NCBI GenBank assembly: GCA_043825985.1 | Contig: JBDRRB010000018.1 | Span: 16,934-80,933, forward strand | DNA from: a bacterium | GTDB taxonomy: Bacteria; Patescibacteriota; Patescibacteriia; SG8-24 | Reading direction: 5' to 3' | Length of the DNA stretch: 64,000 bases | Part shown: in pieces, positions 9,665-62,965 of the stretch | How positions within the stretch are numbered: position 1 is the first letter of the stretch | Layout of the letters: every line of letters begins with the position of its first letter | Notes under the pieces: generated by a model | Seen by the model: only the letters and a program-made list of their open reading frames with translations | Database searches by the model: none | Told to the model about the DNA's origin: nothing | Translations under genes and position numbers: made by a program

Positions 9665-10924
9665 CTATTCGCGGTCCGGATCTGGCTCCAGGGCCGCTTC
9701 GGTGTAGACGTTCCGGGCGTTCCACAGCAGCCAGCCGCTGCCGCCGCCCTCCTCCGTGGCGCGCATCTGCTCCCGCACCAAGAACGGCGTGTAGACCGCG
9801 CCCAGGTCGAAGTCCTGGATCCAGGGACGGAAGGTGCCCAGCCTCTCGGCCGAAGCCTCGGCCGCCAGCCGCTCGTGCAGTTCCTGACCCCGCAGCAGGT
9901 TCAGGTAGACGACGTCGAACGGACGCGCGGCCGGATTCGGATAGCCGTTGAAGTTAGCCGGGTAGTGGGAAGGATACACCATGGGCGAGACAAAGTTGAA
10001 GTGGGGCAGGGCGTCCGACAGCTTCTGCCCGATGTTCAGGTCATATTCGTGCTGCCACATGGTCAGGCCGAACAGGTCGACCGAGATCGGCATGCCGGAC
10101 ATGACCCGCAGCTCCTTGTCCAGGTGGCCGAAGAATCCGGCCATGACCTCGGACTTGGACTCGGTCCGGTCCCAGACCGGAAACGACATGGTGCCGATGT
10201 TGCCGTCGGACGGAAAGCGGATGTAGTCGAACTGGACCTCGTCGAAGCCGCCGGAGTAGGCCTCCCGGGCGACCGCGACGTTGTACTTCCAGACCTCCTT
10301 CGAGGCCGGATCCAACCACGGAATGCCGCGGTAGTCGCGCCACAGGCCGCCGCCGGTCCGGGCCACGGCCAGCTCGGGACGCGACTCGGCCAGCATGGGA
10401 TCCTGAAAGACGAATATCCGGGCGATCAGGTAGATGCCCCTTTCCCTGAGCGGCGCGGTGAACTCGGCGATCCGCCCCAGTTGGGGACGCTTGGCCGCGT
10501 ACGGCCGGAGCGAATCCGACTCGGGCTCGAAGGACAGCGACCCGTCGGCGTCCTTGACGTCGATCACCATCGAGTTCAGCTCGGTCCGGCCGACCAGGTC
10601 CACCAGCTGGTCGAAGCGCTTGCGGTAGCCGGCCGTGGCCGCGGAGACGTAGATGCCGCGCACGAAGTCCGGAGTCGCGACATGGGCGGCGTCCGTGCCG
10701 TCACCCGGACCGACGAGCGACCTGACCGCCGCCGAGGCGAACCTCTCGGACGGATAGGACGGACGGCTGCGCTCGGTCGACATCTCGTGGGCCAGAAGCA
10801 GTATCAGCGGCAGGGACACGACGACCAGGATCGCCAGACCGAAGGGGACGGACCGCCGCAGCAAGAACGGACGGCCTCGCCGCCACGCCTCCGCCGCCGA
10901 CCTGAGCCCGTCCCGCCGAGTCAT
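9665..10924 (-). CDS. Membrane-anchored glycoside-hydrolase-like protein (GHL10/DUF4015-like)
   Basis: N-terminal TM, then a TIM-barrel-like sequence (GIYVSAATAG...MVIDVKDADG...DEVQFDYIRFP). Start reassigned to the MTRRDG ATG, which overlaps the pgi stop (ATGA). The longer track ORF would overlap pgi. Confidence 0.55.
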   Translation of the reverse strand: MTRRDGLRSAAEAWRRGRPFLLRRSVPFGLAILVVVSLPLILLLAHEMSTERSRPSYPSERFASAAVRSLVGPGDGTDAAHVATPDFVRGIYVSAATAGYRKRFDQLVDLVGRTELNSMVIDVKDADGSLSFEPESDSLRPYAAKRPQLGRIAEFTAPLRERGIYLIARIFVFQDPMLAESRPELAVARTGGGLWRDYRGIPWLDPASKEVWKYNVAVAREAYSGGFDEVQFDYIRFPSDGNIGTMSFPVWDRTESKSEVMAGFFGHLDKELRVMSGMPISVDLFGLTMWQHEYDLNIGQKLSDALPHFNFVSPMVYPSHYPANFNGYPNPAARPFDVVYLNLLRGQELHERLAAEASAERLGTFRPWIQDFDLGAVYTPFLVREQMRATEEGGGSGWLLWNARNVYTEAALEPDPDRE

Positions 10925-14913: not shown

Positions 14914-14989
14914 GTTTCGAGGAATCGATGTAATGAATGATCCCAGCACCAGCGGACTTCTGGTCGGGATCCACCTTCGCTAAAGCTAT

Positions 14990-15395
14990 GGTGGACAGGT
15001 GCAGTGTGCCGACCTAGGACAAATCCACGCAGGTTCTGGGCGGGACCCGCCTCCGCCCTTCGACTTCACTACGGGCGGGGCAAGTGTTATGTACTCGGTT
15101 TCACACGCCAGCGGACTTCAGGTTGAGATGATATGTGCCGGTCTGGGGCGAGTCACGCGAAGAAACCATCGGCAGGTTCTGGGCGGGACCCGCCTCCGCC
15201 CTTCGACTTCACTCAGGGATACGGGCGGACAAGTGTCATGTGCCGACACCCTGCATCTCAACATCAGTGGGCTTCGGACGGGATGCGATGTGCCCGGCTG
15301 GACCGAACGACGAAGCGAAACGTACTGAAAACGTACGTTGAGCTAGGAGCGAGGGAAGCCGGACGCAGCGCGCCCGATCCGGAGACCACTTATCT
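14990..15395. repeat. Nested intergenic repeat array: 42-nt exact direct repeat (15029-15070, 15172-15213) plus modules of the dispersed structured element (copy A 15271-15392)
   Basis: Exact duplicate gcaggttctgggcgggacccgcctccgcccttcgacttcact. Recurring (a)tgtgccg motifs. Copy A core atgcgatgtgcc...aacgtac-tgaaaac-gtacgtt...gcagcgcgcccgatcc with a pairing closing helix cttcgga/tccggag. Confidence 0.7.
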
Positions 15396-43054: not shown

Positions 43055-43288
43055 CGTTTCGACCAGGGTATCGCCCTTTGTGACCGGAATGCCAGGGAAA
43101 GAAAGTTAAAGTAGCCTCCTGAAAAAATCTAATAACAAAAAAATTTATTTCATATAACGTTCCAGAATATGCGATGTTTGGCAGTGGTAAAATTTGGAGC
43201 GGAGCGACATACCACTGCCAAATATGAGAGAGCGAACGGAGCGATAGCGGAGTGAGTGAACCAGTTATTCATTGTTAAGTGATGTGAT

Positions 43289-43765
43289 TTAAATTTTCTC
43301 CATCATTTTCTCAACTGTTTCTTCAACTGTCAGATCGGTATTGTCAATTTCATGACCTGCTTGAATTTTTGTAGTAACCATGTGCACGAATCGAGCAGAA
43401 TCTTCACCGTAAACTTTTTTCCTTTTGGAATCCCTCTCGATACATTTATCTACGTGGCTGGTTAGAGTGAAAATTTCTACATCATTATCAAATTTTTCCA
43501 CTAAATCATCAATTTGTTCTTGATAGTAGAAACACCCATCAATAATAAAGGAATTTTCACTCTTCTTTGCTAAATCGAGGATGATTTGATTTGCTTTTAA
43601 GTAGCTCTCGAGAGGGATTCCATCTGAATTAGCTGGAACCAGTTTGTTATCATCAACAATTTGATCTAGTGATAAATATTCTAGGTGAAGATTCTGCGAC
43701 AACAGTTGAGAAACAGTTGTTTTGCCAACACCTAATGGACCTCTGATTATTATTAGTTTTTTCAT
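43289..43765 (-). CDS. Small P-loop kinase (AAA_33/NMP-kinase-like, predicted nucleotide or small-molecule kinase)
   Basis: Walker A GPLGVGKTT at residues 9-17 and a 158-aa single-domain kinase fold. Gene and flanks are ~35-40% GC against ~65% for the window. Confidence 0.6.
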   Translation of the reverse strand: MKKLIIIRGPLGVGKTTVSQLLSQNLHLEYLSLDQIVDDNKLVPANSDGIPLESYLKANQIILDLAKKSENSFIIDGCFYYQEQIDDLVEKFDNDVEIFTLTSHVDKCIERDSKRKKVYGEDSARFVHMVTTKIQAGHEIDNTDLTVEETVEKMMEKI

Positions 43766-43971
43766 AGACTGAAAAATTAAATCATTTCACATAACGTTGG
43801 GCTTATGCGAAGTTCAAAATTTGAGGCAACCCACAAATTTTGAATTTGGGAAACCGAAGTGCAACGAGGTTTCCGCATAAGCCCTGTTATGTGCCCCGAG
43901 CGTAACGCAGTGAAGCGAGAGTGCAACGTGGTCGACCGACTGAAAGGAGGGAGAAGTTAGGGTGGCGGACA

Positions 43972-44334
43972 TCATTCAATGAATCCATCTCTCTTCAGCT
44001 TCTCAAGTGAATTATTGATGGATTCTTCTAATTCTTTATCTGCTTTGTAATAAGCACATATTTGGAGGGCTGAACGTAAGACATCTTGAATCTCTTTGGC
44101 GAGCTTCTTTTTGTCTGGTTCTCCATGCTTATCTTTTTTAACTCCGGTATTCTCAAAATGATTTACTTCACTAGCAAGCTCGCCACATTCTTCAACGAGT
44201 CGTGTGATTATTTGAAAAGGATCTTTGCCATTCGGAAACTTCTTATCTAATCCCGCGTTAATTTTTATAACTTTGTCTAACATATTTGTTGTGAAGCCCT
44301 CCAAATATTTAAAGATGATGTAATTGTCCGCCAC
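43972..44334 (-). CDS. MazG-like nucleotide pyrophosphohydrolase (small all-alpha NTP-PPase)
   Basis: EECGELASEV (EExGE motif) and a second acidic helix (EIQDVLRSAL). 120 aa. Low GC, with an AT-rich upstream region. Confidence 0.65.
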   Translation of the reverse strand: MADNYIIFKYLEGFTTNMLDKVIKINAGLDKKFPNGKDPFQIITRLVEECGELASEVNHFENTGVKKDKHGEPDKKKLAKEIQDVLRSALQICAYYKADKELEESINNSLEKLKRDGFIE

Positions 44335-44399
44335 CCTAATTGCACATAACTAGTTTTTATCCGAACTTTGTATTCCAAGTGTGATAAATTCTTGTTTGT

Positions 44400-44871
44400 T
44401 ATACAAACTTTTTTAAAAAAGCCGAACTCTCGAGGTTGAGAAAACAATAGTAAGGTTTAAACCGGAATCCGGTTCAATCGTTTCTGGATCCCGGATCTCC
44501 TTCCCTCCGGTCAGTCGTCCGGGATGACAGGCTAGGGGGCTGGTCAGTCGTCCGGGATGACAATAACTGTTGTCATGGCAAGCAGAAAAAGCAGCAGTGA
44601 TCAGAAAAACAAGCAGCCCTTGGACGGGAGGCGATGTACCGATCGAAAAACAAAGCAGGCCACAGATTGGACCCACCTCCACCAAGACTTCGGTGGGCAG
44701 GTGAAGTGTGTCCTAACCGGTCCCGGAAAATGAAACAGCCCTTGGACGGGATGCGATGTGCCTGCTTGGAGGAAATCGTACGACGAGGCGTACTAGTGCA
44801 ATACGTCGAGTAAACGATTTCCGAAAGCTGGTGCAGCGCGCCCGATCCAAGGGCTGCCATTCCTTGACGGT
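44400..44871. repeat. Repeat-dense spacer: 21-nt direct repeat (ggtcagtcgtccgggatgaca x2), two 5' modules of the structured element (44617, 44739), and copy D (44737-44858) ending 14 nt from the tsf stop
   Basis: cagcccttggacggga[gt]gcgatgt[ag]cc occurs twice. Copy D closing helix cagcccttgga/tccaagggctg is a perfect 11 bp. Conserved gtgcagcgcgcccgatcc 3' core. Confidence 0.65.
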
Positions 44872-53580: not shown

Positions 53581-53762
53581 GGCCGAAAGATTATCGCGGA
53601 CTAAGTCTATGCGCGCCGGCCAGACGAGTCAAAACAGGACCGAACAATAAAGCTGTACCCATTTCCCGACGACGAATGACGAGCCGAGACGAAGAACAAT
53701 CGCGTCCGTTCGATGCCGAATCGGACCGAGAAAAAACAAAAACCGTCGACAATGGCAGTGAA

Positions 53763-53792
53763 CAAAAAAACCGCTCACTGCTAGTGAGCGGC
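53763..53792 (-). terminator. Minus-strand intrinsic terminator ~450 nt downstream of the nearest minus-strand gene
   Basis: On minus: ccgctcactagcagtgagcgg hairpin followed by TTTTTTTG. Confidence 0.5.
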
Positions 53793-54109
53793 AATCATGT
53801 CATTGCGAGCGAGTGCGGCGAGCGTGGAAATCCCGACCGAAGCACAGACCCCGACGGGATCATCACGTTACGTCGATTCCTGCCTGCCCCGCCTGCCGGC
53901 GTGCAGGAACAGGCAGGCGCTCCTCCATTCGTGACGAGAACATCCCCGTGGATTCCCGATACGTCGTTCGCGAACGACGTATCCCGCCGGAGCCTGCCCT
54001 CGCGAAGGCGGGGGGCGGTAATGACATGCGGTTAGATGAAAAACAAACCGACCAGGACTCTCTGGTCGGACGTAACTACTATGGCAAGCAGGTTCTGGAT
54101 GGAATTCAT

Positions 54110-54250
54110 CTTAAAACAAAGCGGACTTCAGGTTGGATGAAGTGTGCTTGGCTGGAGCGATCCGTGCAGCGAAACGTACTAAGAACGTACGTTGAGCAAA
54201 CGGATCGCGAAGCCAAGTGCAATTCGCCAAGCTGGAGTCCGCCCAATCTA
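54110..54250. repeat. Structured repeat element, copy B (diverged)
   Basis: gcggact...agtccgc 7-bp closing helix, atgaagtgtgc core, gcgaaacgtac-taagaa-cgtacgttgagc hairpin, gtgcaattcgcc 3' core. Overlaps the stop codon of 54248..55249. Confidence 0.6.
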
Positions 54251-61063: not shown

Positions 61064-61399
61064 ATGAAAACGTATCCGATGAGGCTGCATCCCGAACCGT
61101 TCGAGCGGATCAGGTCCGGCCAGAAAACCGACGAGCTGCGGCTCAACGATCCCAAGCGGCAGCAAATCCAAGTTGGCGACCGGATCGAGTTCAGCCGACG
61201 GCCCGAATGCACGGAAAAACTGCTGGCCGAAGTCTCCTACCTGAAGCACTACCCGACCTTCGCCGAGATGTACGACGGGGTGAAGGACAGGTATCCGGAG
61301 GCCAGCCGCGACTCGTTCGTCGCCGGCATGCACCAGTACTACCCGCCCGAGGAGGAAGCCGAGTTCGGCACGGTCGAGATCGGCCTGCGAGTGGTCTAG
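61064..61399 (+). CDS. ASCH-domain protein
   Basis: RLHPEPFERIRSGQKTDELRLNDPKRQQIQVGDRIEF is a small beta-barrel ASCH/PUA-like pattern. Inserted between nusG and rplK. Confidence 0.6.
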   Translation: MKTYPMRLHPEPFERIRSGQKTDELRLNDPKRQQIQVGDRIEFSRRPECTEKLLAEVSYLKHYPTFAEMYDGVKDRYPEASRDSFVAGMHQYYPPEEEAEFGTVEIGLRVV

Positions 61400-61417
61400 C
61401 CAGAAACCAAACCAACG

Positions 61418-61450
61418 AGTGCCAGAACCAAAATCTGGCACTTTTGTTTC
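61418..61450 (+). terminator. Intrinsic terminator after the ASCH gene
   Basis: gtgccaga-accaaaat-ctggcac hairpin followed by TTTTGTTTC. Confidence 0.6.
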
Positions 61451-61505
61451 GGTTAAACCAAAAAGAAGGCAAATCGACCGAAAACTTGGCAGCTAAACCA
61501 ACCCC

Positions 61506-61534
61506 TTGCTAAAACCGCCCAAAACCGCTAATCT
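61506..61534 (+). promoter_or_regulatory. Sigma70-like promoter for rplK (TTGCTA-N17-TAATCT)
   Basis: -35 at 61506-61511, exact 17-nt spacer, -10 TAATCT at 61529-61534. A ~237-nt leader follows. Confidence 0.45.
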
Positions 61535-61639
61535 TCGCACGCATACGGTGGGTCCCCGGACTCGGGACCGCTTCTCTCCGTAGACAAACGGAAACCCCGC
61601 TTCTTAAAGCGGAGCCGTCCAATTCATTCCAAACATCGA

Positions 61640-61762
61640 CGGGCACTGGGCGGGATGCAGTGTGCCCCGCTGGACCGAGCGACGACGCGAGACGTACCCA
61701 AAATGTACGGCGAGCTAGGAGCACGGGAAGCGGGGTGCAATGCGCCCGACCCAGTGACCGCA
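61640..61762. repeat. Structured repeat element, copy C, within the rplK 5' leader
   Basis: Closing helix cactggg/cccagtg (perfect 7 bp), junction cggg/(A)/cccg, core atgcagtgtgcc, hairpin gacgtac-ccaaaat-gtacgg, gagctaggagc, gcaatgcgcccga. Ends about 10 nt before the rplK ATG. Confidence 0.65.
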
Positions 61763-61771
61763 TAGAAAAAT

Positions 61772-62197
61772 ATGGCTAAGAAGGTAAAGACACAGATTAA
61801 GCTCCAGATCCCGGCCGGCCAGGCCAACCCAGCGCCGCCAGTCGGTCCGGCCCTCGGTCAGCATGGCCTGAACATCGCCGAGTTCTGCCAGAAGTTCAAC
61901 GCCGCCACCCAGCAGATGATGGGCGACATCACGCCGGTCGTGATCACGGTCTACGAGGACCGGACCTACGACTTCATCCTCAAGACCCCGCCGGCAGCCG
62001 AGCTGCTCAAGAAGGCGGCCGGAGTCAAGAAGGGCTCCGGCAAGCCGCTCTCGGACAAGATCGGTTCCGTCACCAAGGCGCAGGTCCGCGAGATCGCGGA
62101 AAAGAAGCTGGCCGACCTGAACACCGACGACGTGGAGGCCGCCATGCGCACCATCGAGGGCACGGCCCGGCAGATGGGCCTGACAGTCAAGGAATAA
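61772..62197 (+). CDS. rplK: 50S ribosomal protein L11
   Basis: [35 protein letters not shown]... is the canonical L11 N-terminus. Confidence 0.95.
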
Positions 62198-62206
62198 GCC
62201 TCACAC

Positions 62207-62231
62207 GACCCCGCTCCGGCGGGGTTTTGTG
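62207..62231 (+). terminator. Intrinsic terminator directly after rplK
   Basis: gaccccgc-tccg-gcggggt hairpin followed by TTTTGTG. Confidence 0.6.
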
Positions 62232-62298: not shown

Positions 62299-62733
62299 AT
62301 GAAACGAAACATCATCCGCCAGATCTATTTCTATGCGGCGAGCCTCATCACCCTCGTGATCATGGTCGTCGCCGGCGCCCAACTCGTGAACCTCGGCCTC
62401 AAGTCAACCGTCTTCCCGAAAGCCGACGACATCTACAATGTCCGCTGCGACCAGGAAGGCAACCGCGTCTACGGATATGATCGTCCGCTGTCGGTCGAAG
62501 AAACTGTCGCCGTGGAAGGCCAGCCGAAACAGAGAGAGCTAACCGCTGAGGAACGGGCCGCACTGGAGGAAGAATGCGAGGCGTACGTCGAGGAAGAGCG
62601 TTCCGCCCAGCGCCAGCGCGACTTCGTGCAGAACTTCTCGATGATCTTCGTCGCCGCCCCGGTCTTCTGGTTCCACTTCCGCATCGCCCAACGCGAACGC
62701 GAGGAGGAGAAAAAGCAGGTCGAGAAAGCCTGA
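62299..62733 (+). CDS. Hypothetical membrane protein inserted between rplK and rplA
   Basis: Two hydrophobic segments (N-terminal and C-terminal) flank an acidic coiled region. Its own terminator is at 62743-62768. Confidence 0.45.
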   Translation: MKRNIIRQIYFYAASLITLVIMVVAGAQLVNLGLKSTVFPKADDIYNVRCDQEGNRVYGYDRPLSVEETVAVEGQPKQRELTAEERAALEEECEAYVEEERSAQRQRDFVQNFSMIFVAAPVFWFHFRIAQREREEEKKQVEKA

Positions 62734-62768: not shown

Positions 62769-62965
62769 GCCGTCGAAAGCAACTTGGCTCACGAACCCCG
62801 CCCAAACGAGTTTCCCTGCCCTATACGCCCAGGATACGGACGCCGCCATGGCCGAAGGGCAACATCCCCGGAGACTCTTGCCAAATTCCCCTTATTCCGC
62901 TAGAGTGGCGCCATTACTAATGAACGTGGGAGGATCGATAGATCCGCTCGCACCACATCAAGAAT

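Follow-up and report, generated by a model that had tools for sequence, protein, structure and literature searches.

The ERIC/IRU elements of enterobacteria are 127-bp imperfect palindromes, and similar elements, resembling miniature inverted-repeat transposable elements (MITEs), are Correia in Neisseria, bcr1 in Bacillus cereus and the Rickettsia palindromic elements. REP sequences measure 20-40 nt and have a conserved GTAG-type head, while class C (IIC) group II introns target terminators in fixed orientation. Here we compare these systems with a hairpin repeat of about 131 nt that is present in four full copies (A, E, B and C) in a 64-kb stretch of DNA, below called the window, from an uncultivated member of Candidatus Uhrbacteria (Patescibacteria). 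Copy C lies in the 5' untranslated region (UTR) of rplK, the gene for ribosomal protein L11, just before the start codon. We consider it probable that this copy is one insertion of a selfish, non-autonomous, dispersed structured repeat of the MITE/ERIC kind, carried in the rplK 5' UTR. The family occurs in a subset of Patescibacteria.

Like the element studied here, ERIC/IRU sequences are about 130 nt long, form an imperfect hairpin over their full length and are multi-copy, extragenic and non-coding; in addition, they are often co-transcribed in UTRs in either orientation and their insertions are polymorphic between relatives. However, we detected no sequence relation between the two and no TA or other target duplication, and the host is a member of Patescibacteria. 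Further, the covariation of the element is far stronger, its internal loops are conserved and its orientation to the neighbouring gene is strongly biased.

With REP/BIME the element shares its extragenic, palindromic nature, its position at gene 3' ends or between convergent genes, the occurrence in mosaics with other repeats and a structure that is better conserved than the sequence. It differs in its length of 131 nt and its several conserved loops, and no RAYT gene was seen among the ten window proteins that were scanned with Pfam for mobility genes. The parallel to IIC introns concerns target choice only: in the metagenome Ga0265297, near-identical copies sit, in fixed orientation, exactly at the T-tract end of the terminator of the neighbouring gene. 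Unlike these introns the element has only 131 nt, with neither intron domains nor a reverse transcriptase gene, and copies A, B and E abut stop codons instead of terminators.

The position before rplK also calls for a comparison with the RNA that ribosomal protein L1 binds. Fu et al. 2013 (PMC3616713) report that in several phyla the RNA with which L1 interacts is located before rplA and consists of a short stem interrupted by a small bulge. Such a site is defined as a stem of 6-12 bp with an internal bulge that holds a G-A pair and an unpaired A, located before rplK or rplA (PMC3616713). Copy C has the position in the rplK 5' UTR that the L1 leader of the L11 operon has in Proteobacteria, but it is a 44-bp rod instead of a short stem, and it belongs to a multi-copy family found mostly away from ribosomal protein genes. 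We read the long rplK leader as the conserved Uhrbacteria leader plus an inserted repeat, with no new ribosomal-protein regulator replacing the L1 site.

The rplK leader in the window and in related genomes

The features between the gene upstream of rplK and rplK itself are:

61064-61399, + strand: ASCH-domain gene upstream of rplK (Pfam match)
61417-61452, + strand: intrinsic terminator of the ASCH gene, a 10-bp stem followed by a T-run (61417-61443 in the terminator scan)
61506-61534, + strand: rplK promoter, TTGCTA (61506-61511), 17-nt spacer, TAATCT (61529-61534), from the sequence
61544-61582, + strand: native leader structure, helix P1 (UACGGUG/CUCCGUA) around hairpin P2 plus the GCUUCU loop (consensus fold)
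61551-61569, + strand: P2, GGUCCC-CGGACUC-GGGACC, the first small hairpin, which varies between genomes
61597-61612, + strand: second small hairpin, CCGCTT-CTTA-AAGCGG, not conserved in sequence
61614-61633, + strand: single-stranded 5' extension, AATTCATTCCAAACATCGA-like (similarity judged by eye)
61634-61764, + strand: copy C of the rod-hairpin repeat, 44 bp, paired 61640-61760 (model match and fold)
61761-61771, + strand: A-rich unpaired spacer CATAGAAAAAT from the hairpin to the ATG, with no Shine-Dalgarno (SD) sequence (sequence and whole-leader fold)
61772-62197, + strand: rplK, ribosomal protein L11, 141 aa, ATG at 61772

To identify copies of the repeat we used a covariance model, R1, built from the four window copies. 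Copy C scores 142 bits with this model on the + strand. It folds at -72.2 kcal/mol (z = -7.9) on this strand, as compared with -60.3 kcal/mol (z = -3.8) on the - strand. The base of the hairpin lies 11 nt from the rplK ATG, while the model match ends 7 nt from it. When the whole 270-nt leader is folded, the element stays a separate hairpin and the AUG region is open. An SD-like tetramer is found in only about 12 of the 58 window genes, and starts are typically preceded by A/T-rich bases.

The terminator behind the ASCH gene means that rplK needs its own promoter. A generic sigma-70 scan does not call it, the site having only 7 of 12 matches to the E. coli consensus. The organism-specific pattern TTGC-N19-TAnnCT occurs six times in the window, where 0.39 are expected, each time upstream of a gene and in the correct orientation; the genes include rpsB, secE, rplK and a dCMP deaminase gene. 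Further, the stricter pattern TTGC-N19-TAnTCT is present upstream of rplK in all eight Uhrbacteria loci compared. With a predicted start about 7 nt past the -10 hexamer, the leader would be about 231 nt long. An earlier reading of this DNA, made from the sequence only, had proposed a promoter followed by two small hairpins and a full copy of the element as the source of a long rplK leader. All of these components are present, and the proposal that a multi-copy structured element lengthens the leader downstream of a real promoter holds.

The eight rplK leaders are those of the window, L036, L045, L029, L032, L034, L038 and L039. Here L036 represents a set of the Uhrbacteria CG1_02_58_44 type (L036, L037 and L040-L044), L045 stands for L045 and L046, and L029 is Uhrbacteria RIFOXYC2_FULL_47_19. 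The gene order gyrB-secE-nusG-rplK-rplA is common to the window and its Uhrbacteria relatives. RplK of the window is about 91% identical to Candidatus Uhrbacteria proteins and 100% identical to a protein of one metagenome-assembled genome (MAG).

A block GCTTCTCnCnG is found in all eight leaders, 36-54 nt past the promoter. The consensus fold assigns it to helix P1 (UACGGnG/CnCCGUA), as loop and 3' strand; P1 has two compensatory pairs and encloses a variable hairpin, and the invariant loop GCUUCU is at 61570-61575 in the window. The second small hairpin is not shared in this way, since L029 has a different one at its place. From this comparison, P1/P2 with the GCUUCU block is to be regarded as the native, conserved part of the rplK leader, and it is intact in the window. 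This structure is not in Rfam; it is a candidate ribosomal-protein leader whose architecture loosely parallels that of the motif upstream of rplA described below.

The element has a different distribution. The R1 search places it 6-8 nt before the rplK ATG, in the sense direction, in three lineages: the window, the L036 type and the L045 type. With filters off, the same model finds no element in the about 20 kb around rplK in L029, L032, L034, L038 and L039. These five leaders keep the promoter and the leader motif. Where the element is present, the distance from the conserved motif to the ATG is greater by about 130 nt. In its relatedness to the window L029 equals the carriers: each of them shares about 91% identity with the window in RplK, about 92% in NusG and about 80% in RplA. 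A hairpin found in three lineages and missing from five, one of them equally close, is best described as an add-on to the native leader, and not as an ancestral regulatory part of it. The stretch 61614-61633 probably belongs to the inserted unit, since it looks, by eye, like the sequence 5' of copies A and B and 5' of the copy in L036.

The rplK copies of the different lineages may not be orthologous. Their flanks do not align and they belong to different subfamilies. Promoter and leader structure of L045 are near-identical to those of the window, but the about 50 nt between leader motif and element do not align, and in its apical half the L045 element has 87% identity with window copy B, as against only 60% with copy C. 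This suggests that the site was filled more than once, or that it was overwritten by copy exchange.

Next, we consider rplA, which is separated from rplK in the window by these features:

62207-62226: terminator between rplK and rplA
62299-62733: DUF5671-like membrane protein gene (Pfam)
62878-62906: a promoter of rplA itself, TTGCCA-N17-TAGAGT
62926-62956, + strand: candidate L1-binding site directly before rplA, GUGGGAG, a covarying hairpin and ACCAC (from the sequence)

The inserted gene and terminator had been pointed out in the sequence-only reading, and they are found in the window genome only; in seven sister lineages rplA follows 50-133 nt after rplK. The motif GUGGGAG-hairpin-...ACCAC, which we take to resemble the L1 stalk of 23S rRNA, lies directly upstream of rplA in all seven Uhrbacteria loci, i.e. 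the window and six sisters (L029, at about 10468-10505, L036, L032, L034, L038 and L039). It has no match in Rfam and is likely the L1 autoregulatory site.

It had been suggested that the element stands in the rplK leader in place of the L1 site. This does not agree with the L1-like motif before rplA, nor with the native leader being intact in all eight genomes. Moreover, L036 has the element although its rplK and rplA are adjacent, so the element has no connection with the inserted DUF5671 gene and terminator. As an L1-binding RNA itself the element does not fit the published description: it is a 44-bp rod with several loops, most copies are not beside ribosomal protein genes and a better candidate precedes rplA. 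Curators of ribosomal leaders could add two candidates for the phylum, the rplK leader motif and the L1-like site of rplA.

The repeat family and its structure

In addition to copy C, the window contains these copies:

15262-15392, + strand: copy A, 3' end 3 nt from the stop of a convergent MacB/FtsX permease gene
44730-44860, + strand: copy E, 3' end 11 nt from the stop of the convergent tsf
54116-54245, + strand: copy B, 3' end 2 nt from the stop of a convergent 333-aa gene
44604-44640 and about 44660-44712: partial 5'-arm copies near copy E

All four full copies are on the + strand, where they score 129-142 bits with R1, against 31-38 bits on the - strand. They are 52-77% identical, yet they form the same 44-bp rod, and 23 of the 44 pairs are compensatory among these four alone. 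At least 20 further copies are found on other contigs. The pattern scan finds relatives in Parcubacteria/Uhrbacteria CG1_02_58_44, in Patescibacteria MAG175, in a MAG labelled as Gammaproteobacteria and in metagenomes including Ga0265297, where several copies are near-identical.

Using the 23 distinct copies of the covariation set, 95.6% of the cells are paired and 30 of the 44 pairs show changes on both sides. None of 500 shuffles reaches any of these measures, and when the partner is slid by 1-3 columns the paired fraction falls to 23-44%. It should be noted that this alignment was fitted to the model, which favours structure; an independent run with MAFFT and RNAalifold gave the same fold. 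The conserved parts also include the internal loops UGGA/GAA and CGA/GAG, which can form tandem G-A pairs on the + strand, and the apical stem CGUAC/GUACG.

The + strand is, from the alignment, the structured strand of the family. Here 112 G-U pairs stand against 21 A-C mismatches, two U-G pairs are almost invariant, and copy C folds 12 kcal/mol better on this strand than its complement does. Compensatory pairs beyond the controls together with a strand-specific signal are what is generally asked of a structured RNA, and the family shows both. The alternative offered earlier for copy C, that it is antisense-oriented debris tolerated in a UTR, fails on the same data: this copy is among the few that lie in the structured sense.

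No described family accounts for the element. The whole window has no match in Rfam 15 at gathering thresholds. For 61400-61800, at E <= 10, there is nothing relevant, the only match being a chance one to snoZ206 (14.7 bits, other strand, outside the element). ARAGORN finds no tRNA or tmRNA, no copy of the element was found in viral contigs, and literature searches, including full text, on repeats and RNA motifs of Patescibacteria and on the core sequence of the element gave nothing relevant. A coding element was considered because an antisense ATG is conserved at its 3' end, and was rejected because 1-nt indels between copies break any frame. The signal is among the clearest covariation signals from so few sequences and comes with conserved loops and no match in Rfam or the literature. 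The family may be of interest for catalogues of structured RNAs and of small mobile elements, its hosts being reduced, repeat-poor Patescibacteria genomes whose mobile DNA is little studied.

The surroundings of the copies show two patterns. With neighbouring genes placed by a rough gene caller based on GC at third codon positions (GC3), most copies have a convergent gene whose 3' end is no more than about 50 nt from their own, i.e. they are antisense to their neighbour. A smaller number precede start codons in the sense direction: besides rplK, with the context AGAAAAAT-ATG, a copy in L002 ends 8 nt before the ATG of gatB, with the context AGAAAT-ATG, and one in L010 lies 22 nt before the ATG of a gene. 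Among the 28 copies of the flank set the 3' flank is A-rich in 18, compared with 5% of random 16-mers.

For copies A, B and E, motif and promoter scans detect no promoter-like site ahead of the element on the + strand. On the - strand, B and E have terminators beyond them, with none detected near A, so it is probable that B and E are transcribed as the reverse complement only, in 3' UTRs. The reverse complements of these two copies have only moderately T-rich tails after the hairpin. The element as an intrinsic terminator was rejected, as the + strand flank is A-rich and on neither strand does the scan recognise any copy as a terminator.

Explanations for the copy before rplK

Under the explanation that we favour, copy C would have landed between the native leader module (promoter, P1/P2 and GCUUCU loop) and the rplK start codon. 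The sequences show the anatomy of the element, its membership in the family, the covariation, the strand asymmetry, its distribution among the relatives and the conservation of the native leader; as to its transcription, mobility, target preference and neutrality, we infer the following. The conserved promoter would drive the copy and rplK as one transcript, in which the copy has the orientation that gives the family its best structure, and the copy would fold on its own into a hairpin of -72 kcal/mol that leaves the A-rich start unpaired in a mostly SD-less organism. Since the native regulatory part is untouched and a candidate L1 site precedes rplA, the effect on rplK is most likely none or mild; if mild, it might consist of 5'-end protection or a processing site. 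The covariation, the fixed G-U pairs and the tandem G-A loops would reflect the needs of a single-stranded form, RNA or DNA, while being copied, and would be less well explained by a function at each resting place. New copies may prefer A/T-rich tracts, which in GC-rich compact genomes are terminator tails, stop codons and A-rich starts; such a preference would account for both contexts, 3' ends and starts.

The signs of mobility and accumulation are a burst of near-identical copies in one metagenome, a nested repeat, truncated copies (5' arms upstream of A and E in the window) and empty orthologous sites. Several properties of MITEs are found. The element is short, non-coding, multi-copy and dispersed (four full copies in 64 kb), and its insertions are polymorphic: the rplK leader is filled in three lineages and empty in five, and the site of copy B is empty in L029, which shares with the window the terminator there. 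As the arms pair over their full length, the ends are trivially inverted repeats, and no separate, better conserved terminal motif is seen.

A number of observations weigh against this explanation. The flanks of the 28 copies show no target-site duplication or obvious terminal signature, and copies A, B and E lack the A-rich 3' flank. No transposase, reverse transcriptase or HUH-type nuclease is found beside the copies by Pfam among the ten window proteins, where the results are RNase_H_2, MacB/FtsX, EF-Ts, MazG, AAA kinase, ASCH, DUF5671 and FtsW, and the loci compared show no autonomous partner with matching ends. Further, the copies within this one genome are only 52-77% identical yet fully paired. 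Decaying junk would not stay paired, so either recent copying from several conserved masters or selection on each copy is needed. Finally, of four lineages at equal distance, three have an element at exactly this spot ahead of rplK, and another copy is 8 nt before gatB. This regularity, as judged from the positions, goes beyond random tolerated insertion and could point to selection for a function.

The last point leads to the view that the hairpin is a recruited cis-acting RNA, a working part of the rplK 5' UTR (and of that of gatB in a relative) that is kept by selection. It could bind a protein, serve RNase III-type processing or stabilisation, or act as a platform that places the 30S subunit on an A-rich start without an SD sequence, and the genome is indeed largely SD-less. 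The shared sense-oriented spot at rplK, occupied by two subfamilies, the same spacing and similar start context at gatB and the copy before a start in L010 all agree with this, as do loops that are conserved on the transcribed strand, including the tandem G-A motifs and fixed G-U pairs. However, the element is missing from five relatives whose leaders are otherwise homologous, L029 being as close as the carriers, and most members of the family are antisense to their neighbours, where they would be unable to act in this way. The constant spacing could just as well arise if insertion favours the A-rich tract that precedes the start codon. The sequence-only reading had named recruitment as one of two options and proposed the comparison of sister leaders. 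On that comparison an ancestral regulatory part is not supported, while the repeated use of the same spot in three lineages is retained as an argument. All together we find recruitment rather unlikely. The repeated occupancy before the rplK and gatB starts provides a concrete test between a neutral passenger and use by the host.

The repeat could also belong to an undescribed class of structure-dependent mobile RNA or single-stranded DNA of Patescibacteria that homes to A/T tracts, both in terminator tails and in translation starts without an SD sequence, and in one Uhrbacteria clade it would have been domesticated at rplK and gatB as a 5'-UTR module, e.g. as a docking site for a protein that recognises tandem G-A loops. 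We regard this reading as improbable.

A further possibility is that the hairpin acts at the DNA level, as a single-stranded palindrome of the REP/RAYT kind or as a recombination or replication site, with no role as RNA and with copy C as a passenger. Its extragenic copies near gene 3' ends, clustered with other palindromic repeats, are reminiscent of REP/BIME, and short motifs like the 5' arm, all in the same orientation, recur ahead of copies A and E. Since DNA also forms stable G-T and tandem G-A mismatches, the strand asymmetry is no proof of RNA. Still, we hold a pure DNA role to be quite unlikely, given that 131 nt with elaborate conserved loops is much larger than REP and that neither a RAYT nor an HUH-type gene is among the scanned proteins.

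Least credible is that every copy is a stand-alone small RNA gene, a + strand unit convergent with its neighbour that in the case of copy C merely adjoins rplK: strong covariation with strand asymmetry is typical of functional RNAs, the four window copies share one strand and subfamilies are kept between genomes (as copy B and the L045 element show), but copies A, E and B have no promoter-like site of their own, no + strand terminator follows the hairpin, the Ga0265297 copies lie between two convergent terminator-like hairpins, copy C has no other promoter upstream than the conserved one of rplK, which element-less genomes have as well, and copies are missing from close relatives.

Minor observations around the copies

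The gene orientation in the window flips from - to + near about 55.5 kb without a change in GC skew, which is negative across the whole window with no switch. A replication-strand bias, or an origin at this point, was considered; the skew, staying negative, gives no handle on it.

Beside copy E there is an AT-rich island at 43200-44500, with a GC of about 0.52 compared with 0.65 elsewhere. Its genes, an AAA kinase-like (43289-43765) and a MazG-like one (43972-44334), have GC3 values of 0.29-0.35, and the island is probably foreign DNA.

The region 53581-54247, which holds copy B, has about 450 nt more than L029 between the stop of the 333-aa gene and the shared terminator (53770-53792). This extra DNA includes a unit with inverted ends, ATGTCATTGCG...CGGTAATGACAT (about 53799-54035), a perfect palindrome, GATACGTCGTTCGCGAACGACGTATC (about 53962-53990), and a second terminator-like hairpin at 54048-54069. 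Element copies in L024 and L013 have the palindrome CGTCGTTCGCGAACGACG upstream of them as well.

Upstream of copy A, at 14950-15261, a 42-nt direct repeat, GCAGGTTCTGGGCGGGACCCGCCTCCGCCCTTCGACTTCACT, is present twice (at about 15030 and 15172). The same region has four motifs like the 5' arm, GGnnRRGTGnnnTGTGCC, in the same orientation at about 14997, 15077, 15126 and 15227. In addition, GCAGGTTCTGG from this region recurs upstream of copy B, at about 54088.

The unit that is repeated in Ga0265297 is longer than the rod, reaching about 110 nt further upstream (L013 8150-8280, L027 5600-5725, and L018, L021, L008 and L016). This upstream part has a hairpin and a stretch, CTTCGCTCTGCGG, like the leader motif of Uhrbacteria rplK, with a 12-nt identity, TCCCCGGACTCG, to the window leader. 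Directly before the rod is a terminator-like hairpin, CCCGGGCTGACGCCCGGGG-TTT. That these units are retro-copies of an rplK 5' UTR was considered and not adopted, the support being the 12-nt identity and the CTTCGCTCTGCGG-like stretch only. The copies in the window and in MNWN01 do not have such a leader-like upstream module.

Some Ga0265297 copies contain a nested insert of about 50 nt, CCCCGCCACTGTATTTCATCAAAGAGGGCGGGGTCCCGCCATCGGCGGGAA, inside the rod. The insert-bearing copies are:

L025, 11207-11387
L020, 10682-10862
L013, 8281-8461
L008, 7689-7868
L010, 5370-5550
L027, 5726-5842

The insert is found at two different positions in the rod, which points to a second small mobile repeat.

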